32,000 nucleotides of DNA from Opitutales bacterium (GCA_965219535.1 CBDCNV010000001.1:1170001-1202000); one strand, 5' to 3'; positions 5,633 to 32,000 are shown, counted from the first letter of the stretch. The notes: generated by a model from the letters alone, not told the origin. Translations and numbers: made by a program.

Positions 5633-5770
5633 GGAATTTCGATTGTCGATTGATTCTCTTTGTCATCGCGAGGCTGCTTGTCAGCCGTGGCGATCCAGGG
5701 GAATGTCGAACGCATATTGTTAGCCCCCTGGATTGCCGCAGTCGGCTACGCCTCCCTCGCAATGACAAGA
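5633..5770. repeat. ~135-bp imperfect palindromic element, copy A (TTGTCATCGCGAGG ... CCTCGCAATGACAA, inner ATCCAGGGG/CCCCTGGAT)
   Basis: The reverse complement aligns base for base with 22729..22865, except for the flipped 23-nt centre. Confidence 0.9.
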
Positions 5771-5878
5771 GAGAATGCAGGATGGCCAGACAATCGGAAA
5801 ACCTGAAAACCGGATTAATGAAATTTTCAAGATGCAAGAAATTCGTAGAAATTCACGCATCATCGCATTCACACATTT

Positions 5879-5903
5879 CCTTTTGACTTTTTGACCTTTT
5901 GAC
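5879..5903. repeat. (CTTTTGAC)3 simple-repeat arm ending 6 nt before the sixA start
   Basis: ccttttgactttttgaccttttgac, then TGATAT, then ATG at 5910. Confidence 0.9.
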
Positions 5904-5909
5904 TGATAT

Positions 5910-6374
5910 ATGCGCTTATACTTGGTCCAACACGGCGAGGCAAAATCGAAAGAGGAAGACCCTGATCGGGGACTTACTGATAAGGGTATTCGTGATGTTG
6001 AAAAAGTAGCTGTCGCCCTAAAATCATTAGGCCTGAGAATCGACAGTCTTTGGCACAGTGGTAATACGCGCGCGCGCCATACAGCCGAGATTTTACATCC
6101 ATCGATTGCCTCGTCGTGCGAATTAATCGAGCGTGATGGATTATCCCCCAATGATCCGGTAGGAGATATGAAACAGGTGATAGAAGAGGGTGGAGCCGAC
6201 ATTATGATCGTTGGGCATTTACCTTTTCTAAATAGACTTGCGGCACTGCTCGTAACCGGCGACGAAAATTTGGATGTTGTTACCTTTCAAAACGGCGGAA
6301 TTCTCTGCCATGAATACCGGGAAATTGACAATTGGTCTATTGCTTGGATGATTGTTCCGGAAGTTTTAGAATAG
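5910..6374 (+). CDS. sixA: phosphohistidine phosphatase SixA-like (histidine phosphatase superfamily)
   Basis: 154 aa. N-terminus is MRLYLVQHGEA (QHG variant of the RHG motif), with VGHLPFL near the C-terminal half. Size and layout are typical of SixA. Confidence 0.75.
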   Translation: MRLYLVQHGEAKSKEEDPDRGLTDKGIRDVEKVAVALKSLGLRIDSLWHSGNTRARHTAEILHPSIASSCELIERDGLSPNDPVGDMKQVIEEGGADIMIVGHLPFLNRLAALLVTGDENLDVVTFQNGGILCHEYREIDNWSIAWMIVPEVLE

Positions 6375-6449
6375 GTCAAAGGTACTGGTCAAAAAGTCAA
6401 AAGGCCAAAGCTAAATAACATACACGCATTTCCTTTTTGACCTTTTGAC
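6375..6449. repeat. complete GTCAAAAG/CTTTTGAC hairpin cassette filling the whole intergenic spacer
   Basis: GTCAAAGG starts at the nucleotide after the TAG stop (6372-6374). The right arm CCTTTTTGACCTTTTGAC ends 6 nt before the ATG at 6456. Confidence 0.9.
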
Positions 6450-6455
6450 TAATAC

Positions 6456-7277
6456 ATGCACTACGGCATCAGCACTCTGATTGTGCAAGGTGAAGACTTG
6501 GAACCCGGTCTCCAAAGAATAAAGGATGCGGGTTTTAATGAGATTGAGTTGTTATGGGATCCCCCACATTTCAACGCGAGCGAGCACTCGACGAATGCGG
6601 TGCAAGCGCTTATGAAGCGTCTGGATCTTTCGATGCGCGTCGGTCACAGCCCTATTACTGATATCGATTTGGCCTCTCTCAATAAGGAAAAAAGAAAAGC
6701 TTCGATTGAAGTGATAGCCCGATCGTTTACGGTGTTCAAGGAGCTGGGAGCTGAATCGGTTGTTGTGCACGTCAATGGCTATTCGCTTGATTATACCGAA
6801 GAAAATCGAAATGCGAGCACAGTGAATTCTAGAGAATCCATTCTCGCGTTGGTTGACAGCGCATCTGATGCGGGAATCAAGATGGCATTGGAAAATCTGC
6901 CGCATCGCGGGACATCGAGGCCCTTTCATTCGATGGAAGAACTGCAAGCTTTAATAGTGGACATGCCCAGGGAACATGTAGGCTTATGTCTCGATACTAC
7001 TCACGCCAGGTTCGCGGGACATGATCCGCTGCAGCAGTTAAACGTGGCCGCAGATAGATTGTTCACTTTACATTTGCATGATACGGACGGAGACGGCGAT
7101 CGTCATTGGGTGCCGGGGAGGGGTATCATTGACTGGGACGCGTTTATCGACAGATTGTCAGTATTGAATTTTACGGGTTCAAGGACACTTGAAGTACAAT
7201 CCACTCCAACGACAAGCGATGGCGTACTTAAAGCGTGTTTTAGTGTAGCCAAAAACTGGGAGTCACGCTATACGTAG
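6456..7277 (+). CDS. sugar phosphate isomerase/epimerase (xylose isomerase-like TIM barrel)
   Basis: VVVHVNG, ALENLPH and TLHLHDTDGDGDRH match the metal-binding layout of AP endonuclease 2/xylose isomerase-like TIM barrels. Confidence 0.8.
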   Translation: MHYGISTLIVQGEDLEPGLQRIKDAGFNEIELLWDPPHFNASEHSTNAVQALMKRLDLSMRVGHSPITDIDLASLNKEKRKASIEVIARSFTVFKELGAESVVVHVNGYSLDYTEENRNASTVNSRESILALVDSASDAGIKMALENLPHRGTSRPFHSMEELQALIVDMPREHVGLCLDTTHARFAGHDPLQQLNVAADRLFTLHLHDTDGDGDRHWVPGRGIIDWDAFIDRLSVLNFTGSRTLEVQSTPTTSDGVLKACFSVAKNWESRYT

Positions 7278-10135: not shown

Positions 10136-12688
10136 ATGCGATACAGTCTATTAGTATTCTTCTTTTTTTTAATTACACTCTGCTCTTCCATCGCGGCAGA
10201 ATCCGCTAAAAACAATACTTCTGATGAATTATTCACCTGGGAGGAATTACCGGATTATCCCGATGAGGCGGGCGTTGCCGGTGCTTTTGTCGGAACTAGC
10301 AATGGCGCATTGATTATCGCCGGGGGGTCACGATCAGTTCAAGCCATTAGCAAAGGTGTAGATAGCGTCACTCATGATTCCATTTATGTTTTAGAAAAAA
10401 CAGGTGAAGAATACCACGCGTATACAGATTTTAAATTGCCGCACCCTGTAACCCAGGGCGCTTCGGTCGTTACCGATGAAGGTCTTGTCTGCCTGGGTGG
10501 ACGTGATGAAAACAACACTTACGATGATGTATATGTTTTAATCTGGAATAAAGAGACGAATGAAATTGTAAGAAAAGATTTACCCAGTCTCCCGCAAAAA
10601 TGTTTCGGTTTAGCAGCAGCATACATGGGGAATAAGATCTATGTAGCGGGGGGGATGAATGAAGAGGGAATACTCAATAATTTCTGGAGCTTAGATCTTA
10701 CACCGGGTGAGATGTCAGATTGGCAGGAACTACAACCATTTCCCGGTTTAGAACGGTACGGCGCGACACTGATTGTCCAAAACAACGGTTACCACCCTGT
10801 TCTCTATCTCTTTAGTGGTAAGCGTGATGATGAGTATCTTAAAGATGCTTATTTCTATGATCCGGAAGTAGATGATTTAAGTAAGCGCTGGAAACAGATT
10901 GTCGAAATGCCACGCGCCTCATTCCAGGCAGCGGGAGCTGCTGTCGGTAAGTCGCATATCATGATATTCAGCGGTTCTCATAACAACGAGATGAGTTCGT
11001 TGAATGACGAGATTCAATATTCAGATGATATTATTGCTTATCACACAATTACCGACACCTGGGTGACATTCGGACACACGCCGCAAGGCGTGGTAAAAAC
11101 CGGCATCGTCCCCTTTGCTGACGGATACGTTTTAGCGGGCGGTGAAACTTCGTTGGGATTCCGGACACCTAAAGTTTATCACGCGCGAACCAAAAGCATA
11201 ATTAAAAGGTACTTTCATCTCCTCGATTACGTCTCCCTCATTGTCTATCTGGTCATACTTATGGGTATGGGATTTTATTTTTCAAAGCGGGAAAAAACGA
11301 CGAAAGATTATCTGTTAGCTGGGCAGCGAATTCCTTACTGGGCGGCGGGGTTGAGCATGCTGGCCACAGGTGTGAGCTCGATTGGATTTATGGCCATTCC
11401 CGCAAAAGCTTTTGCCACTAACTGGGTCTATTTTTCCGCTATATTCATTTGGTTTATCATTGTCCCGTTTGTTAATAGCATGATCGTACCCTTTTATCAC
11501 AAATTACAGATCACTTCTGTTTACGAATACCTTGAAGCAAGATTTAATATCGCCGTTCGTCTAATTATTGCTGCTTTATTCTGTCTCTTTCAAATCCTCG
11601 GACGTATGAGCGTGGTTCTTTTCCTGCCCGCACTCGCACTCTCCGCGGTAACCGGTGTCGATAAATACACCTGCATTCTTCTCATGGGTGTATTCGCCAC
11701 TCTCTATACAGTGATGGGTGGCATGGAAGCTGTCATCTGGACGGATGTTATTCAACTTTTCGTTCTCATGGGAGGTGCGATACTCTGTATCGTGCTCGTT
11801 ATCTCGGGCATTGATGGCGGGGTGGGGACTTTCTTTGACGTGGCCTTTGAAGATAAGAAGATGAAGCTGGCCGTTTTAAAATGGGATTACACGGAAGCGG
11901 TATTATGGGTTGTTCTAATGAATGCGCTGATTTATCGCCTGCTTAACTTCAGCACCGATCAAACGATCGTTCAGCGAATCATGACGACGTCGAATACAAA
12001 GGAGGCGAAAAAAGCGATATGGTGCGATTGCCTGTTTTCAATTCCCTGGTCTTTTATCGCGTTTGGTTTGGGAACTGTTCTCTATGTCTTTTATAAAACG
12101 CATCCAGAAAAATTAAATCCAACCCTGGCAACCGATGCAATTGTCCCTTTGTTTATTGTTCAGAATGTACCTATTGGACTCAGTGGTATTATCATTGCCG
12201 GGGTTTTTGCCGCTGCGATGTCGAGCCTGGACAGTTCGATGCATAGCACGGCGACGGTGATCGTCACTGATTTCTATAAACGTTTCAAACCGGCAGCTAC
12301 CGATCATCATCTTCTTACTGTCTCGCGCTGGTTGACTGGACTGCTCGGTATGTTTGGCACGGGAGCAGCCCTTTGGATGGCAAAAATGGACAGCTCTTCG
12401 ATGTGGGATGTATTTATTATCGCACTAAGCCTGTTTGGTGGAGCGATAGGAGGAGTATTTGCGCTCGGCATTTTTACTAATCGCACGAATAGCTCCGGCG
12501 CTATTCTCGGAACGTTATTAAGTGTCGTTATATTGTATTTTGTAAAACAATATACCGAGATTCATTTCTTCCTTTATGCCTTTGTCGGTATGACAGCAGG
12601 AATTATTCTGGGGTACATTTTAAGTTTTATCACACCCGGTAAACCAAAATTCGAAGGGTTGACGGTTTATAGCCGGAAAGGGGAATAA
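10136..12688 (+). CDS. fusion: signal peptide + Kelch-repeat beta-propeller (NanM/YjhT mutarotase-like) + sodium:solute symporter (SSS family)
   Basis: The start is placed at MRYSLLVFFFFLITLCSSIAAES (signal peptide). The ~330-aa N-terminal domain has repeated GG/YV..GG Kelch-like blades. The C-terminal ~500 aa are SSS-like (DYLLAGQRIPYWAAGLSMLATGVSSIGFMAIPAKAF; 13 or more TMs). Confidence 0.85.
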   Translation: MRYSLLVFFFFLITLCSSIAAESAKNNTSDELFTWEELPDYPDEAGVAGAFVGTSNGALIIAGGSRSVQAISKGVDSVTHDSIYVLEKTGEEYHAYTDFKLPHPVTQGASVVTDEGLVCLGGRDENNTYDDVYVLIWNKETNEIVRKDLPSLPQKCFGLAAAYMGNKIYVAGGMNEEGILNNFWSLDLTPGEMSDWQELQPFPGLERYGATLIVQNNGYHPVLYLFSGKRDDEYLKDAYFYDPEVDDLSKRWKQIVEMPRASFQAAGAAVGKSHIMIFSGSHNNEMSSLNDEIQYSDDIIAYHTITDTWVTFGHTPQGVVKTGIVPFADGYVLAGGETSLGFRTPKVYHARTKSIIKRYFHLLDYVSLIVYLVILMGMGFYFSKREKTTKDYLLAGQRIPYWAAGLSMLATGVSSIGFMAIPAKAFATNWVYFSAIFIWFIIVPFVNSMIVPFYHKLQITSVYEYLEARFNIAVRLIIAALFCLFQILGRMSVVLFLPALALSAVTGVDKYTCILLMGVFATLYTVMGGMEAVIWTDVIQLFVLMGGAILCIVLVISGIDGGVGTFFDVAFEDKKMKLAVLKWDYTEAVLWVVLMNALIYRLLNFSTDQTIVQRIMTTSNTKEAKKAIWCDCLFSIPWSFIAFGLGTVLYVFYKTHPEKLNPTLATDAIVPLFIVQNVPIGLSGIIIAGVFAAAMSSLDSSMHSTATVIVTDFYKRFKPAATDHHLLTVSRWLTGLLGMFGTGAALWMAKMDSSSMWDVFIIALSLFGGAIGGVFALGIFTNRTNSSGAILGTLLSVVILYFVKQYTEIHFFLYAFVGMTAGIILGYILSFITPGKPKFEGLTVYSRKGE

Positions 12689-12912
12689 GTCAAAAAGTCA
12701 AAAGGTCAAAAGGTCAAAAAGTTTAAGACGCGAATTTCACCTATCTTCTGCGTACTTCTGTATCTCTGTGGTTCAAACTTTTTCCCGCATTATCACATTC
12801 ACGTATGAGAGGTATCCATCCGTAGCACGAGGCTTTGGACGACAGGCGGGCTTCGTCTTCGGTACGCATTTACGAATTTCTTTTTGACCTTTTGACTTTT
12901 TGACCTTTTGAC
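12689..12912. repeat. complete GTCAAAAG/CTTTTGAC hairpin cassette (33-nt arms, ~158-nt loop) filling the whole intergenic spacer
   Basis: The left arm gtcaaaaagtcaaaaggtcaaaaggtcaaaaag starts at the nucleotide after the TAA stop (12686-12688). The right arm ctttttgaccttttgactttttgaccttttgac ends 6 nt before the GTG at 12919. Confidence 0.9.
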
Positions 12913-12918
12913 TACTAG

Positions 12919-13776
12919 GTGATGATGACTTTGGACATCAACCGACATACAACTGAACTTAAACGTGAGGGATACACGATTATTCACGCTGTTATGTCAT
13001 CTTCGGAGATCGATGCGACGAAGCAGGCGATCGAAGAGACCTTGAATGCTGAAGAGACCCTAGGGCGAAAATACGGGTTACAGAATGAAAATCTGCGTAT
13101 GTCATTCAATGTCCAAAGCAAGCACCCTCATTTCTATGGGATGCCACTGCGCAACCCGGAGGCGGTTGAGGTTGCACGGCGCGTGTTGGGGGATGACATG
13201 TTTGCGCACGATGTCACAATCCGGACACCATTGCCGACCGGTAAAAAGAATTGGAGCAAGTATGGAGGAAATCTACACACCGATTGGCCCGACTTTACGG
13301 TAAAACCATTTACTGAAGGCAAGCATTACCCCATGGCTATTCAGTCGGTGTGGGCGGTGTCTGATTTCACGAAAGAGACCGGGGGACCGATGATCTGGCC
13401 GCGATCCCATTTGTCACTTGAAGTTCCACCAGAAGAGCCTGAAACTTTGCCTCCAGGATGGATCATTGCTGAAGCACCGGCCGGCTCTGTCGTCATGTGG
13501 GATTCGGGATTATGGCATACCGGCGGTACCAATTGTAGCGATTCCCCGAGGTATTCACTTATCTTTTACTTCCAGCGATGGTGGATCAAGGGGTTCAACG
13601 ATTCCTACCGTTTTGTGCCGCCTGAGGTGCGTGCCGCAATGACCAAAGAGGAGCGCCGTATGTGGGGTCTTGAAGCGGGGATCCCGCCTAACACCCATCT
13701 TCGAGGGATGAGCATTGAACAGATTGCAGCTTTCACCACTGAAGAGAAAGCGGTTTTAAACATCGCACCTTATTAA
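12919..13776 (+). CDS. phytanoyl-CoA dioxygenase (PhyH) family Fe(II)/2-oxoglutarate oxygenase
   Basis: HTDWP (HxD) and WHTGGTN (distal His) form a facial-triad layout. The start could be GTG 12919, ATG 12922 or ATG 12925. Confidence 0.8.
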   Translation: MMMTLDINRHTTELKREGYTIIHAVMSSSEIDATKQAIEETLNAEETLGRKYGLQNENLRMSFNVQSKHPHFYGMPLRNPEAVEVARRVLGDDMFAHDVTIRTPLPTGKKNWSKYGGNLHTDWPDFTVKPFTEGKHYPMAIQSVWAVSDFTKETGGPMIWPRSHLSLEVPPEEPETLPPGWIIAEAPAGSVVMWDSGLWHTGGTNCSDSPRYSLIFYFQRWWIKGFNDSYRFVPPEVRAAMTKEERRMWGLEAGIPPNTHLRGMSIEQIAAFTTEEKAVLNIAPY

Positions 13777-13796: not shown

Positions 13797-14492
13797 ATGA
13801 ATCAAAATTCTATACCTAAATTAATCGAGAATCTACGGGGATTCGACAGTGCAACAATATCCAACGCGATTGAACATTTCGAGGTTCGTGATCCAACGAT
13901 GGGTTTTGCCAACAATGAGTTGATCTGCCAATTGCCTGAGATCGGCGCACCGATGGTCGGTTACGCGCTCACTGCGACCGCAGATTCCACCACGCCGGGT
14001 GATAAAAGAACCTCACGAGTAGACGACCTGGTCGCGCATATCGACGCGGCACCTAATCCTGTCATCCTCGTCGTCCAGCACGTTGGACATGATCGTAAAC
14101 GCTGCTGCCTGTTTGGAGACCAGTTTTGCACGATTGCCGAAAAACTTGGCGCGGTGGGCCTCGTCACCGATGCCAACTGCCGTGACCGAACCGGGATACG
14201 AAAGCGGACACCCAATTTCCATGTATTTGCTGCTGGTTGGGTTGTCTCTCATGGTTACGGAGCCTTCCTCGACTTCAACATTAATATCGAGGTAGGTGGA
14301 CTGACCATTGCTCCGGGCGACCTGCTACACGGTGATGAAAGCGGGCTGGTTTCTGTTCCAAAAGACATTGCTGAGGATGTCGTGAACCGGGCTAAGGACG
14401 TGATTAAGGAAGAAGCCGATTACTTTGATTTTCTGAAAAGCGATGATTATACCTTTGAAAAACTCCAACGCCGAATTCTACCGCATGAGTGA
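13797..14492 (+). CDS. RraA-family protein (RraA / 4-hydroxy-4-methyl-2-oxoglutarate aldolase-like)
   Basis: 231 aa with GDQFCTIAEKLGAVGLVTDANCRD and GDLLHGDESGLVSVP, typical of the RraA/demethylmenaquinone methyltransferase-like fold. Confidence 0.75.
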   Translation: MNQNSIPKLIENLRGFDSATISNAIEHFEVRDPTMGFANNELICQLPEIGAPMVGYALTATADSTTPGDKRTSRVDDLVAHIDAAPNPVILVVQHVGHDRKRCCLFGDQFCTIAEKLGAVGLVTDANCRDRTGIRKRTPNFHVFAAGWVVSHGYGAFLDFNINIEVGGLTIAPGDLLHGDESGLVSVPKDIAEDVVNRAKDVIKEEADYFDFLKSDDYTFEKLQRRILPHE

Positions 14493-14511
14493 AAAATTTA
14501 TAATTTTTTAA

Positions 14512-15246
14512 GGGTCATGCCTAGAATAGACACATATCAGATGTGTAAGCTATTCTAGACAAATGAGAAATAAGTATGTACATCGTTCAAAAATTTCTGA
14601 GGCCAAATTTCGGCAGTTAGTAAAGTGTTTTAGCTTGGATATGGAAGCGTTGAAGATAGCCCAATTGACAGGATTGAATCGTAACACGGTCAACCGTTAT
14701 TTGCGCTTGTTGCGGGAGCGTTTGTTGCAGCAATGTGCGCAGGCCTCGCCTTTTAGGGGGTCGGTGGAAATGGATGAGTCCTACTTTGGAGGCAAAAGAA
14801 TTCCAGGGCAAAGAGGTCGGGGTGCATTCAAGAAAGTGCCCGTCTTCGGGTTGCTCAAGCGTAATGGGAAAGTCTATACCCAGGTTGTACGCAATGTCTC
14901 CAGAGCCGCTCTGCATGCGGTGATCCAAGGGAGAGTTACTTTTGACAGTGTGCTTTATTCTGACGGGTGGCGTGCTTACAACGGCCTCGTGGATCTGGGC
15001 TATAAGAAGCATTACCGTGTCAATCACAACGACAACGAGTTTGCCCAGGGACACTCCCACATTAACGGGATTGAATCTTTTTGGGCTTTTGCTAAACTTC
15101 GATTGGCTAAGTTCAAAGGTCTTTCTCGTAGGACCTTCCAACTGCACCTCAAAGAAACTGAATATCGCTTTAACCATCGTCATCAAAACCTCCATCGTAA
15201 CATCCTTAATATGTGCTTAAGATACCCTCTGTTCTAGGCATGACCC
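14512..15246 (+). mobile_element. IS1595-family insertion sequence (735 bp)
   Basis: Terminal inverted repeats GGGTCATGCCTAGAA(T/C)AGA (18/19 match) and a single ISXO2-like transposase ORF. It is flanked by the 8-bp direct repeat TTTTTTAA (14504..14511 and 15247..15254). Confidence 0.85.
14563..15237 (+). CDS. IS1595-family (ISXO2-like DDE) transposase
   Basis: 224 aa with an N-terminal HTH (IAQLTGLNRNTVNRYLRLLR) and the VEMDESYFGG ... YSDGWRAY ... HINGIESFW signature of DDE_Tnp_IS1595. The stop codon lies inside the right IR. Confidence 0.85.
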   Translation: MRNKYVHRSKISEAKFRQLVKCFSLDMEALKIAQLTGLNRNTVNRYLRLLRERLLQQCAQASPFRGSVEMDESYFGGKRIPGQRGRGAFKKVPVFGLLKRNGKVYTQVVRNVSRAALHAVIQGRVTFDSVLYSDGWRAYNGLVDLGYKKHYRVNHNDNEFAQGHSHINGIESFWAFAKLRLAKFKGLSRRTFQLHLKETEYRFNHRHQNLHRNILNMCLRYPLF

Positions 15247-15268
15247 TTTTTTAATTATAAATTTTTCA

Positions 15269-15365
15269 GTTTTAAGTGTCAGGTGTTAGGTTTTAAGTGG
15301 AGAGCTTAATTGGAAAATCCTACTGATCTTCTCTTACCTAAAACTTAACACCTAACACATAACAC
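15269..15365. repeat. GTGTTAGG/GTTTTAAG simple-repeat hairpin (~35-nt arms)
   Basis: Left arm gttttaagtgtcaggtgttaggttttaagtggagag; right arm ctcttacctaaaacttaacacctaacacataacac. Single arms of the same family occur at 16391..16412 and 24614..24642. Confidence 0.8.
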
Positions 15366-15366
15366 A

Positions 15367-15388
15367 GCACTAGGCTTTTGCCTAGTGC
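15367..15388 (-). terminator. 9-bp hairpin containing the stop codon of the upstream (minus-strand) gene, followed by a GU-rich repeat
   Basis: mRNA sense is GCACUAGGC-AAAA-GCCUAGUGC. The 5' arm includes the last codons AAG CAC UAG. Confidence 0.5.
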
Positions 15389-16257
15389 TTAATCTGTTCC
15401 TGCAAGGCGGCGGTTTCTTCCATTAGCTTCATAAACGGTAGCGTTTTGCGCACGAGCGTTTTCCAATCGGGTATTGGAGGGACGCTGTCCAGCGCTAAAT
15501 AACCGTTGAACCCGATCTCGTTCAACGTGCGCATCACGTCGAGGAAATCGATATGACCAGTGCCGGGCGCCTGACGGTTACTGTCGGCAAGGTGGATGTA
15601 GCACAGGCGGTCACCCCCTCGCCGCAAGGTGTCAGTGATCGGACCGTCCTCTATGTTGACGTGAAAAAAGTCGGCCAGGACATAGAGATTGTCCATCCCT
15701 AGTTGTTCCACGATACTCATTGCTTCATGGATAGTGTTCATGAATCCGGCATACGATTCGAACCGGTTACAAGGCTCAATCGCAATTTTCACGTCACGCT
15801 CCGCAGCGTACTTTGTAATTTCTTCTGTCGTTTGTAAGAAATTCTCGAACAGTTCGTCGTAAGGTATGCTCGTTTGCGGGTAACCGGTGTCTTTCGGGCA
15901 GGGAACAATTTCATAGTAGGGAGGTTCCTCGAACGTGGCCGCCAGATCGACACACATTTTCGCGTATCTGACGGCATTGGCGCGGACCGCTGCATCGGGA
16001 GAGGCTAAATCCCGCTCCTCCCCGGCGTGCCAACAAGCCCAGGCTCCAAGGAGAGCCGGGATCTTCAGCCCAAGGGACGTGGCCATGTCTCGAACCTCGT
16101 TGAATTTCTTTTCAGGGATTCGATCCGGTTCCGCATCGAGGTCGACGCCATCATATCCCGCTTCCGCAATTGTTTCCAACACTTCGCGTGGGTTTTTCCA
16201 GACATCCCCACCATCTTCGGCGAGGTTTGCGAGAACGACAGAGTATTTGTGGCTCAT
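15382..16257 (-). CDS. sugar phosphate isomerase/epimerase (xylose isomerase-like TIM barrel), tandem paralog 1
   Basis: 291 aa from MSHKYSV (the same N-terminus as paralog 2; the 8-codon upstream extension in the ORF track is not conserved). Motifs: IAIEPCNRFE, HVNIEDG, YIHLADSNRQAPGTGHIDF. Confidence 0.85.
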   Translation of the reverse strand: MSHKYSVVLANLAEDGGDVWKNPREVLETIAEAGYDGVDLDAEPDRIPEKKFNEVRDMATSLGLKIPALLGAWACWHAGEERDLASPDAAVRANAVRYAKMCVDLAATFEEPPYYEIVPCPKDTGYPQTSIPYDELFENFLQTTEEITKYAAERDVKIAIEPCNRFESYAGFMNTIHEAMSIVEQLGMDNLYVLADFFHVNIEDGPITDTLRRGGDRLCYIHLADSNRQAPGTGHIDFLDVMRTLNEIGFNGYLALDSVPPIPDWKTLVRKTLPFMKLMEETAALQEQIKH

Positions 16258-16408: not shown

Positions 16409-16430
16409 ACACTAGGCAGTAGCCTAGTGT
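16409..16430 (-). terminator. 9-bp hairpin containing the stop codon (paralogous to 15367..15388)
   Basis: mRNA sense is ACACUAGGC-UACU-GCCUAGUGU. The closing pair has changed G-C to A-U relative to paralog 1. Confidence 0.5.
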
Positions 16431-17299
16431 TTTATTTTCTCCTGTAAAGCGGCGGTTGCTTCCATTTGTTTCATGAAAGGAAGTGTCTGACGTACGAGTG
16501 TTTTCCAATCGGGTAGTGGGGGAATACTATCCAGTGCCAGGTAACCGTCGAACCCGATTTCATTCAGGGTACGGATTACGTCGAGGAAATCGATGTGCCC
16601 GGTCCCGGGCGCCTGACGGTTGCTGTCGGCCAGGTGAATGTGGTAGAGTCGTTCACCCGCGCTCCGTAAAGCTTCGGTAATTGGGCCATCTTCCATGTTG
16701 ACGTGAAAAAAGTCTGCCAGGATATAGAGATTGTCCATTTCAACCTGCTCTATTAAATTCATTACCTCTGGAATAGTATTCATAAATCCAGAATACGACT
16801 CGAACCGGTTTATCGGTTCGATCGCAATATTCACATTACGCTCCGCCGCGTGTTTTGTAATTACTTCTGTCGATTGTAAGAAATTTTCGTATAGTTTGCT
16901 GTAAGGAATGCTGGTGCGCGGGTAACCGGATTCAACCGGGCAGGGCACTATTTCATAGCACGGGGGTTCGTCGAATGTAGCTGCCAGGTCGACACACTTT
17001 TTCGCGTAAGCGACTGCATTAGCGCGGATGGCGGCATCAGGTGAGGCCAAATTGCGCTCCTCACCGGCGTGCCAGTAACCCCAGGCTCCAACGAGAAACG
17101 GGATCTTCAGCCCGAGGGAAGTGGCCATATCTCGTACCTCGTTGAATTTCTCTGCAGGGATTCTATCCGGTTCCGCATCGAGGTCGACGCCATCGTATCC
17201 CGCTTCCGCAACCGTTTCCAATACTTCGCGAGGATTTTTCCAGACGTCACCACCATCTGCGGCAAGGGTGCAAAGGATAACCGAGTACTTATGGCTCAT
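16424..17299 (-). CDS. sugar phosphate isomerase/epimerase (xylose isomerase-like TIM barrel), tandem paralog 2
   Basis: 291 aa, collinear with 15382..16257 and roughly four-fifths identical by eye. Confidence 0.85.
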   Translation of the reverse strand: MSHKYSVILCTLAADGGDVWKNPREVLETVAEAGYDGVDLDAEPDRIPAEKFNEVRDMATSLGLKIPFLVGAWGYWHAGEERNLASPDAAIRANAVAYAKKCVDLAATFDEPPCYEIVPCPVESGYPRTSIPYSKLYENFLQSTEVITKHAAERNVNIAIEPINRFESYSGFMNTIPEVMNLIEQVEMDNLYILADFFHVNMEDGPITEALRSAGERLYHIHLADSNRQAPGTGHIDFLDVIRTLNEIGFDGYLALDSIPPLPDWKTLVRQTLPFMKQMEATAALQEKIKH

Positions 17300-18454: not shown

Positions 18455-18487
18455 AGGACGAAGACGAGGAGGCAGACGCAGACGAAG
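18455..18487. repeat. GACGAAGAC-type hexamer-periodic arm (AGGACGAAGACGAGGAGGCAGACGCAGACGAAG), no adjacent partner
   Basis: It is near-identical to 31747..31781 and complementary to 20383..20411. Confidence 0.8.
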
Positions 18488-20357: not shown

Positions 20358-20382
20358 GTTGCAAGAAACAGGTTGTGAAATA

Positions 20383-20606
20383 ATCTTCGTCTTTGTCTGC
20401 CTCTTCGTCTCAGAGGATTCAAGGATTAGTGAGACACTAAACTTCATCTAATCCTACACTCGCTCATAGGTTACCGGGAGTATAGAAATAAATTGGACAA
20501 GGATTAGTGAGACACTAAACTTCATCTAATCCTACACTCGCTCATAGGTTACCGGGAGTATAGAAATAAATTGGACGAAGACGAAGAGAATGACGAAGAC
20601 GAAGAT
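20383..20606. repeat. CTTCGTC/GACGAAG hairpin element whose loop carries a 2 x 78-bp tandem duplication
   Basis: Arms at 20383..20411 and 20573..20606 are imperfectly complementary and use the same unit vocabulary as 31683..31781. Confidence 0.75.
20421..20576. repeat. perfect tandem duplication, 2 x 78 bp
   Basis: 20421..20498 and 20499..20576 are identical base for base. Each unit contains the hairpin AGGATTAG-N18-CTAATCCT. Confidence 0.95.
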
Positions 20607-20611
20607 CCCCT

Positions 20612-21298
20612 TTACATAATCCCATAGGTATCGAAGGCTTCCTGAGAGGGCATTCCCTCTTCAATGGACTTTCGAACCATGTTCTCACCTCTGACTTTTT
20701 CCAGCGCGCGATTGACTACATCCTCCTCGTGCTCCTGGGGAATGATGACAACACCGTCAATATCGCCAAAAACAATATCGCCGGGGCTTACCTCAACTCC
20801 ATTGGGGAACTCGATCCTGCAGCGAAAGTCAATGACCCGACCGCGAACGCCTTGGTCCTGCGCGTACCGACCGGTAGAAAAAGTAGGAAAATTTAATTTC
20901 AAAATGCCGTTCGTATCACGACTGACCCCGTTTACAACAGCACCCACAGCTTTTCTTTTCATAGCGCGCACACTCATGAGTTCCCCCCAAAGGGCATAGG
21001 TTGGTGAAGCTCCGGATGTTATGTAGACTTCCCCCTCATTCAAATCGTCCAGGGCTTTAAACATTAAACCGAAAGGTTTATCGCGACCTTTCTCGAAAGG
21101 TGCCCTATCCCCGTAATCTGCTTCCTGCACGGGCATCGCTCTGCCAATGACGATCATATCATCCCGCAAGGGCTGTATCTGTCTTGGCAAAAATTGATGG
21201 AACAAGTCTATATCATCCATGACATCTCCAACAACGGCAGAAAATAACTCCCGATTGAGGAGATCAAAAAGCTCAGTGTCGTTATTCCAGTCAGGCAT
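20612..21298 (-). CDS. RraA-family protein (second paralog)
   Basis: 228 aa with WGELMSVRAMKRKAVGAVVNGVSRD and GDIVFGDIDGVVIIP. It starts 34 nt downstream of the ThrC-like gene, so co-transcription is likely. Confidence 0.8.
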   Translation of the reverse strand: MPDWNNDTELFDLLNRELFSAVVGDVMDDIDLFHQFLPRQIQPLRDDMIVIGRAMPVQEADYGDRAPFEKGRDKPFGLMFKALDDLNEGEVYITSGASPTYALWGELMSVRAMKRKAVGAVVNGVSRDTNGILKLNFPTFSTGRYAQDQGVRGRVIDFRCRIEFPNGVEVSPGDIVFGDIDGVVIIPQEHEEDVVNRALEKVRGENMVRKSIEEGMPSQEAFDTYGIM

Positions 21299-22587: not shown

Positions 22588-22695
22588 ATGCGTGTATGCG
22601 ATGAAGCGTGCCGAGGGCGAAGCCCGACATCCTCAAATGCGTGTATGCGGTATAGTGCGAACAAGTGGCTCGAGGGTAAAGCCTGATATCCCAAA
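22588..22695. repeat. imperfect tandem direct repeat (~49 + ~58 bp), each unit starting ATGCGTGTATGCG
   Basis: Units at 22588..22636 and 22637..22695 share atgcgtgtatgcg..gagggYRaagccYgaYatcc. They lie in the 5' region of the ThrC-like gene. Confidence 0.8.
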
Positions 22696-22728
22696 AAAAA
22701 TTAAGATTATGTATATAATGCATTCTAC

Positions 22729-22865
22729 CTTGTCATTGCGAAGGAGGCGTAGCCGACTGCGGCAATCCAGGGGAATGTCGGTCACGTATTGACAGCCCCC
22801 TGGATCGCCACGGCTGACAAGCAGCCTCGCGATGACAAAGGGAATCAATCGACTATCTGAATTTC
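22729..22865. repeat. ~135-bp imperfect palindromic element, copy B (inverted relative to 5633..5770)
   Basis: The arms match the reverse complement of copy A with 1 mismatch in the left arm and 2 in the right flank. The central 23 nt (22774..22796) are in the opposite orientation. Confidence 0.9.
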
Positions 22866-23285: not shown

Positions 23286-24173
23286 TCAAGAAGATTTCTC
23301 TAAGGTATCCTTCAGGATATCTATCATTTCAATTAATGTACGATCTTTATCGCGCGACTCGAATGTTTCATCGGCCAGAGAAGACTTACCGACAAACTGG
23401 TATAATTCCGCTGCACCCTGGTATATTTTTGGTGTCAATCCAACGTCTTCAAAAGTTTTAGCAATCTCTTCCATCTCACCTATCCAGCGTCGCGCTTTGG
23501 TCGGCATGCCGGGAAGTCCGCGTTCCAATGCAGTATAGGGCTGTAGCTGACTTAATTGAAATTCTTCGGCTAATGGTTTAATAAGTCCCATTTTTGATGC
23601 GGCGACCAATAATTCCGTCGATAACGCGGCCGTTCCTTTTGTTAAAGCGGCATAGCACATTTTTAATCCCGAAGCCTGGCCGATCTCCGGTCCAACGACA
23701 CGTATATCGAGACCGTAGTTTCTCAATTCTTCAAATTTACCTGCATCCTTGCCCGAGGCGTAAAAACGTGTAGTCGATTTTTTTCTTGGTGGAGGTCCAA
23801 TAATTCCTGCATCCACAAATTGGTTGCCTGTTTCAGTTACTATTTTATTTATCGACTTAGTCGTTTTTGGGGCGATGGCATTACAGTCCACGTAGATAAT
23901 CTGATCACCGGTTGCTTTAGTCGCCACCACTACTTTCTCGGCCACTTTCTTTGCTTCCGCGGGGACCAGGATGGAGAGAATCATATCCGATTCACTCACG
24001 AGTTGATTGTAGGATGCAACTTCACGGATCCCCACCTCCTTCGCCAGCGATCGCGTCAACTCACTGCGATCCTCAAGGCAGGAGACTACTGGCATTCCCT
24101 CTTCGATGAGCACTTTCGCCACGACATGACCCATTTCACCCGGACTTAACACCCCCACTGTCTTCAACTGCAT
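23286..24173 (-). CDS. NAD(P)-dependent oxidoreductase (6-phosphogluconate dehydrogenase-like NAD-binding domain + DUF1932-like C-terminus)
   Basis: N-terminal Rossmann motif VGVLSPGEMGHVVA. 295 aa. GGAG SD (ggagattaaagaATG). Confidence 0.7.
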   Translation of the reverse strand: MQLKTVGVLSPGEMGHVVAKVLIEEGMPVVSCLEDRSELTRSLAKEVGIREVASYNQLVSESDMILSILVPAEAKKVAEKVVVATKATGDQIIYVDCNAIAPKTTKSINKIVTETGNQFVDAGIIGPPPRKKSTTRFYASGKDAGKFEELRNYGLDIRVVGPEIGQASGLKMCYAALTKGTAALSTELLVAASKMGLIKPLAEEFQLSQLQPYTALERGLPGMPTKARRWIGEMEEIAKTFEDVGLTPKIYQGAAELYQFVGKSSLADETFESRDKDRTLIEMIDILKDTLEKSS

Positions 24174-24251: not shown

Positions 24252-24268
24252 GTCAAAAAGTCAAAAGG
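24252..24268. repeat. GTCAAAAAGTCAAAAGG arm without a partner
   Basis: Same unit as 6387..6404 and 12689..12721. It shares the inner flank T(G/T)AAGACGCGAA with 12722..12734. Confidence 0.8.
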
Positions 24269-24310
24269 TTGAAGACGCGAACGCGCTTCTTTTATGAATA
24301 CTTATAACTA

Positions 24311-24524
24311 ACGCCCTGGAGGGGCGATACATTACTAGCCCACTGCGCAAGCTGTGGGATAGGAAGATTGATATAATTTCGAAGCCCCAGCGGGGCGACA
24401 CAATTACAGATGGAAGGTTTATTGTGTCGCCCCGCTGGGGCTGTTTTCTTACCTTTATAATTATCCCATAGCTTGCGCTATGGGCTTTGTTTATCACACT
24501 TCGTTTATCACACCCCTTCGGGGT
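24311..24524. repeat. ~210-bp composite palindrome of GC-rich hairpin modules
   Basis: The centre is a perfect 21-bp stem (24382..24402 with 24421..24441). It is flanked by CCCACTGC-GCAA-GCTGTGGG (24338..24357) and its mirror CCCATAGC-TTGC-GCTATGGG (24464..24483). Additional small hairpins are CGCCC-TGGAG-GGGCG and ACCCC-TTC-GGGGT. Confidence 0.85.
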
Positions 24525-24675
24525 TAAAAAATAACTATAACAACTGTTCATCATCCTTTATAAATTGTAAACCATTTCCTGACCTAAATCTGTAAACGAT
24601 GATCTGGTTGTACCTTTCAACTCTTATATCCTAACACCTAAAACTTAACACGCGCGTTAACGCTTCGCCCCAGGT

Positions 24676-31682: not shown

Positions 31683-31781
31683 ATCTTCGTCTTCGTCCAC
31701 GTCTGCCTCTTCATCCCTGTAATATCAAGCTGTGGATAAGCATAAGAGGACGAAGACGATGAGGCAGACACAGACGAAGAT
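31683..31781. repeat. CTTCGTC/GACGAAG hexamer-periodic hairpin element
   Basis: Left arm atcttcgtcttcgtccacgtctgcctcttcatcc; right arm aggacgaagacgatgaggcagacacagacgaagat; 30-nt loop. Confidence 0.8.
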
Positions 31782-31837
31782 TGGTTACATTCTATCCACG
31801 CACACTTCTGCGCTCTAACGAGGGTTGTTTTAACTAA

Positions 31838-32000
31838 GCCCCGGAGGGGCGGCATAGTCGTAGCCCACAGCGCAAGCTGTGGGTTTGGAGTTAAAAAAAA
31901 TCCAGAGCCCCAGCGGGGCGACACAACTTCTTATTCAACCGGAATTGTGTCGCCCCTCCGGGGCTATTTCTTAATCTACATTAATTTACCCACAGCTCAC
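31838..32000. repeat. second copy of the GC-rich composite palindrome (runs off the window)
   Basis: AGCCCCGGAGGGGCG, CCCACAGC-GCAA-GCTGTGGG (31864..31883), AGCCCCAGCGGGGCGACACAA (31906..31926) and TTGTGTCGCCCCTCCGGGGCT (31945..31965). The window ends inside the mirrored CCCACAGC module. Confidence 0.85.

Follow-up and report, generated by a model that had tools for sequence, protein, structure and literature searches.

The window, a stretch of 32,000 nt, comes from a low-GC marine member of the Opitutales (Verrucomicrobiota). The spacer under study (12689–12912, plus strand) lies between a Kelch/NanM-SSF symporter gene (10034/10136–12688) and the PhyH gene. The TAA stop codon of the symporter gene (12686..12688) adjoins, without a gap, the G-arm (12689..12721), which consists of four octamer units (GTCAAAAA GTCAAAAG GTCAAAAG GTCAAAAA G) and contains no stop codon in any frame. 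It is followed by a mosaic core of 158 nt (12722..12879) and by the C-arm (12880..12912), four units (C TTTTTGAC CTTTTGAC TTTTTGAC CTTTTGAC) that repeat with a 16-nt period at 100% match and supply TGA in all three frames. Within the core, TTTAAGACGCGAA, which is present at 24270 as well, lies beside the G-arm; further inside are CGCATTATCACATTCACG, a module of the AATGCGAT type with a second occurrence at 5856–5876, and, in diverged form, the dispersed REP-like module GTCGGGCTTCGCCCTCGGTAC (12845–12867). Written as consensus units, the arms are (GTCAAAAR)4 and (YTTTTGAC)4: they are 94% complementary over 34 nt, stand 158 nt apart, and pair end to end in the predicted RNA fold of 12689–12912 (−79.2 kcal/mol, z −3.5). 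RNA folding thus renders the spacer as one long hairpin bracketed by inverted octamer runs, as the original prediction had proposed.

The spacer is completed by the gap TACTAGGTG and the probable start codon of PhyH (12913..12924). This start is most likely ATG 12922 rather than GTG 12919, since 45 PhyH homologues begin at the equivalent position (MxxxDI, mostly 284 aa), and the distance from the C-arm to PhyH is therefore 9 nt. The gap region also contains the sequence AGGTGAT (12917–12923), which resembles a Shine-Dalgarno sequence (SD) for ATG 12925.

A second cassette (6372–6458) and an orphan arm (5879–5903) were found as described in the original prediction. In the cassette, the TAG stop of SixA is followed by a degenerate G-arm (GTCAAAGG tactg GTCAAAAA GTCAAAAG GCCAAAG; 6372..6409, plus strand), a site that is orthologous in the related assemblies L242 and L250, and a C-arm of two units precedes TAATAC and ATG 6456 of a xylose-isomerase-like TIM-barrel gene (6433..6455, plus strand). 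The orphan C-arm has three units, followed by TGATAT and ATG 5910 of the SixA-like histidine phosphatase (5879..5909, plus strand). Folding of the spacers, which had been suggested as a check, yielded structures for the paired cassettes (z −2.6 to −5.8) and left the orphan arm unpaired (z +1.2). A fourth arm had been overlooked: a C-arm of two units on the minus strand (24252..24269), 78 nt upstream of ATG 24173 of an NAD-binding dehydrogenase gene (23286–24173, minus strand) that has its own AAGGAG SD. All copies in the window lie outside ORFs, TRF gives a period of 8 (or 16) and 2–6 copies at every site, and the two-unit pattern is found 11 times where 0.04 would be expected, which bears out the claim that this is not random simple sequence. 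A DNA uptake or skewed oligomer signal (USS, DUS, Chi, KOPS) was considered and rejected, because, of 11 exact GTCAAAAG units in the window, 9 belong to arrays and the 2 singletons are at chance level (1.2 expected). A scan with Rfam 15 covariance models at gathering score produced zero matches in arms and core; the sole Rfam match in the window, Acido-Lenti-1 (31837–31883, minus strand), is unrelated to the arms. The window also holds cassettes of like design with other arms, namely (TCTTCG)n/(CGAAGA)n at 20376–20606 and GTTTTAAG/CCTAAAAC at 15263–15365, and one insertion sequence, an IS1595-family element (14563–15237) placed exactly at the same post-stop position.

Position and orientation were tabulated for 149 non-redundant arms among the matches listed. 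In this set, C-arms precede a long-ORF start by 6–12 nt in 20 of 70 cases and G-arms in 2 of 63 (ORF starts were called heuristically, and because C-arms contain stops the calls lean slightly toward the arm, in an estimated ≤ ~7% of cases, too few to account for 20 of 70). Likewise among the matches listed, a stop codon lies at most 25 nt before 25 of 73 G-arms and 5 of 70 C-arms, and an ATG is found within 15 nt 21 times in the C orientation versus twice in the G orientation. The rule that C-arms stand before starts and G-arms behind stops is supported widely, and the strong bias toward gene termini, in position as in orientation, agrees with the proposal of a positioned intercistronic module. 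The strict geometry attached to that proposal did not hold up: neither gap is fixed, with 4–12 nt before starts and 0–19 nt behind stops, some arms lie 78–150 nt from starts, and others flank the stops of convergent genes and serve no start. The hexamers TGATAT and TAATAC do separate C-arms from ATG at two sites, but "three of three" arms with 6 nt is not supported, given the 9-nt gap at PhyH and the fourth arm, and the hexamer consensus dissolves even between orthologues (TAATAC, TAATAG, AATCAA, TTAT, CTTATATTC). Similarly, TAA and TAG abut G-arms in the window, but distances of 4, 5, 7 and 19 nt occur elsewhere. Within start-side gaps of 4–12 nt no SD fits, and arms farther from starts coexist with an SD; three genes without an SD are nevertheless unremarkable, since only about 11 of 25 genes in the window have an SD-like 4-mer.

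The comparison set comprised six related assemblies, including L120, L242, L248, L249, L250 and L252. The same cassette is carried by the Opitutales MAG OY829953.1, and the PhyH homologue P0001 is 95% identical to that of the window. In L242, L250 and L252, however, the PhyH spacer is a common arm-free sequence of ~165 nt, which is unrelated to that of the window upstream of GTGATGATG and bears its own A7-TCGATAGA-T9 hairpin. Judged from this shared sequence, the cassette between the symporter gene and PhyH recently took the place of an ancestral spacer without arms. Moreover, the symporter gene of L242 ends four codons sooner, at a TGA that is absent from the window, which makes the 0-nt gap a lineage-specific accident of the stop used. 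Unit numbers are equally fluid: the C-arm of the TIM-barrel gene has 2 units in the window and 6 in the strain variant L120, the fourth arm has 2 versus 4 in L242, and at another arm close relatives differ by 3 versus 4 units. Core modules are found again at further loci, and arms mark the breakpoints of rearrangements: L248 lacks SixA, and Nmad3 has opposite orientations in L120 and L248.

Against this turnover stands the persistence of certain C-arms. The TIM-barrel gene retains its C-arm in six assemblies (L242, L248, L249, L250 and L252 among them), down to 75% identity and even with a different upstream neighbour, and that of SixA is kept to 67–73% identity while its units drift (CTTCGAC, TTTCGAC). 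Before both genes, a C-orientation array (YTTNGAC)n thus holds its position to 67–75% protein identity, whereas elsewhere these spacers cannot be aligned and (GGATRCA)n has taken the place of the G-arm. The SixA site at 5879 is a full cassette with a G-arm in L242 and L252, and an orphan in the window. The hairpin is therefore not supported as the conserved feature: arms are unequal and strain-variable, G-arms are lost or replaced where C-arms persist, and orphan C-arms are unstructured. In one paired cassette, between the convergent RraA and TIM genes, gaps of 5 and 4 nt to the two stops are conserved in L242, L250 and L252.

The spacer upstream of PhyH accordingly belongs to a family of mosaic intergenic repeats specific to this lineage of low-GC marine Opitutales, of which it is one copy. 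The order within a cassette is stop, (GTCAAAAR)n, core modules, (YTTTTGAC)n, 4..12 nt, start, in which the arms are inverted arrays of 8-nt units in variable number, and the cassettes combine several short tandem-repeat and REP-like modules in a mosaic. Copies have been gained, replaced and resized among close relatives, and the piece that persists in evolution is the T-rich C-orientation array 4–12 nt before particular starts, where a ribosome-binding site would be expected. By analogy with published repeats, the tentatively preferred reading, held with somewhat less than even confidence, is that of an octamer, inverted-pair variant of the start-proximal repeats of the TAACTGA/STRR type, carried on a BIME/MITE-like mosaic and with a putative post-transcriptional role. 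The element would act at the RNA level: a U-rich, G-poor array at the Shine-Dalgarno position, with UGA in all three frames and presumably single-stranded if unpaired, could provide an SD-independent leader and a pad for OB-fold RNA binders such as ribosomal protein S1 and cold-shock proteins, as proposed for the TAACTGA repeats. S1, Csp or another protein would be the candidate binders of (CUUUUGAC)4 RNA. Where an antisense G-arm follows the preceding stop, the arms could zip the spacer into a hairpin of 16–34 bp, which would loop the inserted DNA out and bring stop and start to within a few nucleotides of each other. Such a hairpin might keep the leader inaccessible until the helix is opened by a terminating ribosome or a chaperone, or, between convergent genes, might simply cap both 3′ ends; it would be an optional overlay and not the core function.

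This reading of the array as a leader draws on the bias in position and orientation, the persistence of C-arms, the missing SD, and a published parallel with the same properties (PMC4679880). On the other hand, PhyH functions in relatives without an arm, so that the array is dispensable there; unit number varies from 2 to 6 without visible constraint; arms occur at convergent stops and at 78–150 nt from starts; and the orientation bias may follow from a palindromic cassette with gene-facing outer ends, of which the orphans would be decay products (compare 5879 in the window with L242). A more elaborate scheme, which would amount to an unreported architecture, seems rather unlikely: here the sense (YUUUUGAC)n would replace the SD and recruit ribosomes via an OB-fold protein, the antisense array would zip the spacer, and downstream translation would proceed only once the helix base had been unzipped, either by a ribosome terminating at the upstream stop or, in these cold-water bacteria, by a cold-shock chaperone, with strain-level changes in unit number tuning the coupling.

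It is possible, if doubtful, that the cassettes are selfish or neutral mosaic repeat DNA without any cis function, i.e., MITE/BIME-like palindromes or locally expanding tandem repeats that colonise short operon junctions. The tight gaps would then reflect original spacers of only a few nucleotides, insertions would survive only if their terminal hairpin looped out harmlessly, and the orientation rule would arise incidentally, because the outer ends are formed by the arms. Presence, absence and replacement at one junction between genomes at 95% protein identity, variable repeat number, core modules at differing loci, the differently armed cassettes of like design, the post-stop position of IS1595 and the breakpoints at arms all fit this picture. 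The MITE named in the original prediction fits in part, through the shared core modules and the recent PhyH copy; a fixed spacing is not supported, and no consistent target-site duplication was seen at the flanks examined (ATAA/TACTAG, ATAG/TAATAC, TCGA/TAAAT). Terminal inverted repeats are present (34 nt, 94% complementary), though as tandem arrays that are variable and unequal, and the cores share some modules across loci and are otherwise heterogeneous. No transposase with matching ends was found, the inverted repeats of the IS1595 element in the window being unrelated, and no empty insertion site was recovered in the relatives compared; the PhyH event was the replacement of a whole spacer and not a simple insertion. 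Above all, C-arms are retained at two starts across 25–33% protein divergence while spacer and G-arm turn over, and given the deletion bias of bacteria, neutral DNA should not persist so selectively. That the hairpin itself is functional, as dsRNA cleaved by RNase III or protecting 3′ ends, or by coupling stop to start through unzipping of the helix, is distinctly unlikely. Stems of 16–34 bp do close exactly at stop and start, stop-to-G-arm gaps of 0–7 nt are inside the ribosome footprint, the 5- and 4-nt gaps of the RraA/TIM cassette are conserved, and the predicted stem at 12689–12912 reaches the ~20 bp or more of near-perfect dsRNA expected of an RNase III hairpin; the Correia elements of Neisseria are processed by hairpin cleavage of this type. 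However, arm lengths vary independently (2 versus 6 units), G-arms have proved dispensable in evolution, among the matches listed about half of the C-arms near starts lack a partner within 500 nt, and coupling is impossible in convergent or divergent contexts.

An element acting at the DNA level, be it a site for regulators or nucleoid proteins, a promoter (TTGAC as −35, TAnnAn as −10, leaderless mRNA) or a phase-variable switch, is quite improbable. TTGAC does recur every 8 bp before a T(A)-rich hexamer, strains differ in copy number, and heptamer arrays of Nostoc affected NtcA/LexA action at recO (bioRxiv 10.1101/2022.06.06.494920). However, no sigma-70-like site with a 16–18 nt spacer maps to any arm: TTGAC-to-TAnnAn spacings can only be 7, 15 or 23 nt, and the hexamer abuts ATG, so that transcription would begin inside the ORF, while a gap of 4–12 nt leaves no fixed leaderless geometry. 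The 8-bp period places successive sites on different helix faces, the same arms lie behind the stops of convergent genes, and units are gained or lost upstream of the last one with arm-to-start spacing unchanged, unlike in known promoter-spacer switches. Highly improbable is an intrinsic (Rho-independent) terminator, bidirectional between convergent genes. The hairpins have the right geometry directly after stops, but their stems are A/U-rich with loops of 25–160 nt, the spacers showed no G+C-rich stem followed by a U-tract, no terminator-like site was found in or beside the arms, cassettes lie inside apparently co-directional gene strings, and the ancestral PhyH spacer has its own A7/T9 hairpin instead. 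The terminator/re-initiation cassette of the original prediction is not supported, given the same lack of terminator-like signal and the cassette between convergent genes, where re-initiation is impossible.

Several described systems share parts of this design. Correia elements (CREE/NEMIS) are small, non-autonomous inverted-repeat elements beside or between genes, which are co-transcribed, form hairpins and are polymorphic in presence between strains; their 26-bp terminal repeats are fixed, they have a TA target duplication and an IHF site, and their promoters are defined. In contrast, the ends of the Opitutales cassettes are tandem octamers in variable number, the cores are heterogeneous, and target duplication was not seen. 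Enterobacterial BIMEs/REPs, pneumococcal BOX elements and the NIMEs of Neisseria are likewise mosaics of modules in variable number, intergenic or 3′ of genes, with potential stem-loops in mRNA, and the REP-like mini-hairpin module GTCGGGCTTCGCCCTCGGTAC accompanies the arms. The arms themselves, however, are tandem octamers strongly tied to starts and not palindromic units of 20–45 nt. Membership in REP/BIME (20–40 nt palindrome, GT[AG]G head, alternating, RAYT) was therefore rejected; the module GTACCGAGGGCGAAGCCCGAC found with the arms resembles a REP apart from its GTAC head, and no RAYT gene was found in ~100 kb of related sequence.

The closest parallel is provided by the TAACTGA heptamer direct repeats of marine Beggiatoaceae, some cyanobacteria and Bacteroidetes, with S1, Csp and CsrA as proposed binders (MacGregor, 2015; PMC4679880). 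Both are intergenic head-to-tail arrays of a short unit (within 6–8 nt, its length not a multiple of 3) in 2–6 copies; both favour the forward orientation a few nucleotides before starts, where they overlap the position expected for a ribosome-binding site and an SD is seldom present (here among the matches listed), and both contain stops in all frames forward and are translatable in reverse. The Opitutales unit differs in being an octamer, YTTTTGAC, of unrelated sequence in another phylum, Verrucomicrobiota, with a typical gap of 6–12 nt instead of ~1 nt, and its arrays are embedded in mosaics with other modules; they also form inverted pairs, with an antisense array after the preceding stop and spacer-spanning hairpins, whereas BOGUAY had a single inverted case. 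In cyanobacteria, several tandem families with units of 6–8 nt likewise share the intergenic DNA of one lineage, with some arrays near or over starts: in Nostoc PCC 7120, (TTTTGAA)3 lies upstream of recF and eight copies of GAC(C/T)AAT overlap the recO start, and deletion of a heptamer array affected reporter regulation, mainly through regulator access to the promoter (bioRxiv 10.1101/2022.06.06.494920). Units and lineage again differ, and inverted pairing was not reported there. By sequence, YTTTTGAC does not belong to TAACTGA or the described STRR heptamers, though it would work like them. The earlier statement that no described element has this architecture was thus too strong, since start-proximal, SD-replacing arrays with all-frame stops have been described, and the Opitutales cassettes present this arrangement with an octamer unit and inverted pairs.

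The octamer cassettes constitute a lineage-specific, fast-turnover family of mosaic repeats with variable-number octamer ends, of which the C-oriented array, (YTTTTGAC)n, is preferentially located and selectively kept 4-12 nt upstream of start codons. In the spacer between the symporter and PhyH genes, (GTCAAAAR)4, the G-arm, begins at 12689 directly after the symporter TAA, and (YTTTTGAC)4, the C-arm, ends at 12912, as originally predicted. Each arm is 34 nt long, and the two are 94% complementary at a separation of 158 nt. Folding of the spacer RNA, proposed as a check in the original prediction, pairs the two arms over their full length (-79.2 kcal/mol, z -3.5). The cassette between SixA and a xylose-isomerase-like TIM-barrel gene (6372-6458) and the orphan arm between the cyclase and SixA genes (5879-5903) had also been described correctly; folding is predicted for cassettes with both arms (z -2.6 to -5.8), and the orphan arm comes out as unstructured. 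Within the window, 11 copies of the two-unit pattern stand against an expectation of 0.04, and octamers that occur singly, outside arrays, show no enrichment. From n = 3 upward, (YTTTTGAC)n contains TGA in all three frames; its reverse orientation is stop-free and can be read through, as in the ORF in L001, a locus of an Opitutales MAG.

Other parts of the prediction required revision. An identical 6-nt gap had been assigned to three start-proximal arms; however, in PhyH homologues (MxxxDI, mostly 284 aa), the protein begins at the counterpart of the ATG at 12922, and this gap is therefore 9 nt. The three arms are not the full set, since a fourth lies at 24252-24269, 78 nt upstream of a minus-strand gene with an AAGGAG Shine-Dalgarno (SD) sequence. 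Moreover, the proposed hexamer consensus TRMTAN is not kept among orthologues, and an SD-like 4-mer, expected for most other genes, precedes only ~11 of 25 window genes.

The preference for start codons is borne out by metagenome contigs, in which a scan with a three-unit pattern returned at least 120 stretches; statistics were based on 149 non-redundant arms from the scan matches listed and related loci. Among these arms, the first long-ORF start falls 6-12 nt from the arm in 20/70 C-oriented but only 2/63 G-oriented cases, and an ATG start lies within 15 nt in 21 and 2 cases, respectively, where starts are ORF-based and stops within C-arms shift the calls slightly toward the arm. Conversely, a stop precedes the arm by 25 nt or less in 25/73 G-oriented and 5/70 C-oriented cases among these arms. 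The listed 6-12 nt cases come from contigs with a GC content of 0.44-0.51, with the sole exception of L174 (0.63), and their gaps mostly open with T(A), a partial repeat unit, and hold no SD; where arms are at greater distance from starts, an SD is also present. The starts are supported by the SixA Pfam alignment, which begins at residue 3, and by conserved TIM and PhyH N-termini. Among the matches listed from a two-unit scan of genome contigs, most are chance occurrences in unrelated taxa and only L001 and L072, both from Opitutales MAGs, were useful; a scan of viral contigs gave six matches in unrelated contexts.

A PhyH homologue (P0001) shows 95% identity. Selective retention is apparent from related sequences, which were obtained by exact-protein look-ups. 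L120/L121 represent a strain-level variant, and syntenic relatives are L242 (~95% protein identity), L248/L249 (89%), and L250/L251 and L252 (~75%). The Opitutales MAG OY829953.1, matched by repeat pattern, has the same kind of cassette. The loci of more distant PhyH homologues (L243-L247, GC 0.61-0.66) show neither synteny nor arms. A C-array directly upstream of the TIM-barrel start is found in the window, L120, L242, L248/L249, L250 and L252 (gaps of 4-9 nt), even with a different upstream neighbor. Upstream of SixA it is found in the window, L242, L250/L251 and L252 (gaps of 6-11 nt), although SixA itself is only 67-73% identical. The array units drift (CTTCGAC, TTTCGAC) while the YTTNGAC periodicity stays; the remaining spacer is unalignable. 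As for the G-arm, some loci have it, and others carry a degenerate copy or (GGATRCA)n in its place. In L242 and L252, the counterpart of the "orphan" arm at 5879 is paired with a full G-arm. At the site of this G-arm, the window carries one copy of a ~145-nt inverted repeat pair (5635-5779 and 22719-22863, 17 kb apart, 92-95% complementary).

Copy number and entire cassettes, by contrast, change rapidly. The C-arm before the TIM-barrel gene counts 2 units in the window but 6 in L120, with identical flanking proteins; the arm at 24252 has 2 units in the window and 4 in L242, and for the SixA arm 3 units contrast with 4. The symporter-PhyH spacer of L242, L250 and L252 is a common arm-free sequence of ~165 nt with an A/T hairpin and GTTTTAAG modules, and its homology to the window has sharp limits, "...ATAA" being the last shared sequence on the left and the start region the border on the right. 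The window cassette has thus recently replaced the entire spacer. Without the loss of a TGA in the window, the G-arm would not directly follow the stop: in L242 (9830-9845), the symporter ends at this TGA, followed by AAAGGATAA, whereas in the window (12674-12688) four extra codons (K G E stop) lead up to the TAA that abuts the G-arm. The opposite distribution is seen in the convergent spacer between the RraA-like gene and the minus-strand TIM-barrel gene: L242, L250 and L252 have a GTCAAAAG cassette, 5 and 4 nt from the two stops, and the window instead has an IS1595 element and a cassette with GTTTTAAG/CCTAAAAC arms. This element (14490-15268; DDE transposase gene 14563-15237, 41-nt inverted repeats at 14490-14530 and 15228-15268) has its insertion point precisely at the stop codon (TGA) of the RraA-like gene and is missing at the orthologous site of the three relatives, where the GTCAAAAG cassette sits. 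For the octamer cassettes, a search for a TA target-site duplication gave nothing consistent, and empty sites were not encountered. The core of the convergent cassette is ~85% identical by eye between L242 (11606-11722) and L252 (16264-16385), with proteins only ~76% identical, which exceeds the expectation for neutral spacer DNA and may reflect a conserved small RNA or structure. Gene-order differences between L248 (7891-8000; 1802-1857) and L120 (1375-2660) fall at arms: L248 lacks cyclase and SixA, and the TIM C-arm there is joined to the cyclase-SixA cassette core, an arrangement that resembles the outcome of a deletion between direct C-arms; the orientation of Nmad3 differs between the two loci, with arms at both ends. 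This coincidence suggests that arms serve as recombination substrates.

The cassettes are mosaics, in which recurring modules appear in varied combinations: (AATGCGAT)n, (GTGAACAG)n, (CCCTGAA)n, (GACGAA)n, ACGCGCGTCAGCGC with a C-rich tract, CCTAAAACYTAACAC and a REP-like mini-hairpin. The latter (GTCGGGCTTCGCCCTCGGTAC/GATGTCGGGCTTCGCCCTCGGTAC) occurs at 29 places in the window, related and metagenome loci, with window copies at ~22606-22628 (-) and, in diverged form, at 12845-12867 (+). It is a GGGC-loop-GCCC structure with a compensatory GAGC..GCTC variant in L001, is often bordered by (GGTTCAG)n and (GATATGC)n runs, and has a broader conservation than the octamer arms. Copy number also varies in other units, e.g., (GGATRCA) with ~5 copies in L250 (7335-7385) and ~9 in the near-identical L251 (7307-7385), and (CCCTGAA) reaches 9.7 copies between Nmad3 and an M28 peptidase gene in L120 (2476-2543). 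A second palindromic cassette type (15263-15365 and 24623-24651) has arms of GTTTTAAG/GTGTTAGG and CCTAAAAC/TTAACAC units; its modules are also seen beside GTCAAAAG arms at numerous metagenome loci (L157, L172, L195, L226) and in the ancestral spacer between the symporter and PhyH genes (L242, L250 and L252). A third type (20376-20606) has 28-nt (TCTTCG)n and (CGAAGA)n arms, 86% complementary, which enclose a perfect 78-nt tandem duplication (20420-20575); its right arm lies 5 nt from the stop of a convergent RraA-like gene (20612-21298, minus strand), and GACGAA runs of a related kind are present at 18457-18487 and 31684-31782. A match to the Rfam family Acido-Lenti-1 RNA (RF01687; 31837-31883, minus strand; 38.5 bits versus a gathering score of 37) has a similar copy at 24313-24364 (81% identity). 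Because the matching sequence is a repeat of the intergenic mosaics, this "sRNA" motif appears here to be another dispersed module. Tandem paralogous TIM-barrel genes (15382-16257 and 16424-17299, minus strand) share 77% DNA identity over 300 nt at a spacing of 1042 nt.

The main rival explanation is that the cassettes are a functionless selfish or neutral element, with their geometry as a by-product. This would account well for the polymorphism, but less well for the selective persistence of C-arms. We infer that the C-array acts within the mRNA as an SD-independent leader; being U-rich and single-stranded, it would plausibly be bound by S1 or Csp-type proteins. The hairpin formed with the G-arm could be an optional overlay that loops out the spacer, brings stop and start next to each other, and may gate transcripts or cap them. 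A promoter model (TTGAC as -35, TAnnAn as -10, leaderless) was rejected on the basis of spacing and the promoter scan, and an intrinsic terminator on the basis of a scan that places none at the arms; likewise, no Rfam family or sigma-70-like promoter maps to them. A split SD re-joined over the hairpin base would suit symporter-PhyH (AAGGGG before TAA), but was dropped because SixA-TIM and cyclase-SixA do not fit.

To our knowledge, start-proximal short tandem repeats in place of ribosome-binding sites (Beggiatoaceae, cyanobacteria) have been noted, but never explained. That an octamer version exists independently in an unrelated phylum suggests that such arrays have been recruited convergently for SD-independent gene expression. 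In this version, arrays persist at specific orthologous genes, copy number varies between strains, and the antisense partner is optional. It also provides a natural allelic series, in which the unit number is 2, 4 or 6, the G-arm is there or absent, and PhyH has the entire cassette or none of it. In addition, the arrays sharpen or shift ORF ends (as in the window symporter, which gained four codons), coincide with deletion and inversion breakpoints, and will mislead gene calling and assembly of marine Verrucomicrobiota MAGs. A literature search on the octamer itself returned only incidental primer or sequence matches. The cassettes differ from Correia-type MITEs in that target duplication is absent and terminal repeats are not fixed, and they also fall outside the definition of REP/BIME elements. 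The closest described phenomenon is provided by the TAACTGA heptamer arrays of Beggiatoaceae, which lie in forward orientation a few nt upstream of starts, where SD sequences are rare, contain stops in all frames and have an unknown function (PMC4679880). A further close case is that of the heptamer arrays found next to start codons in Nostoc. The Opitutales arrays differ in unit and phylum, in their inverted pairing across the spacer and in being embedded in BIME/BOX/NIME-like mosaics.
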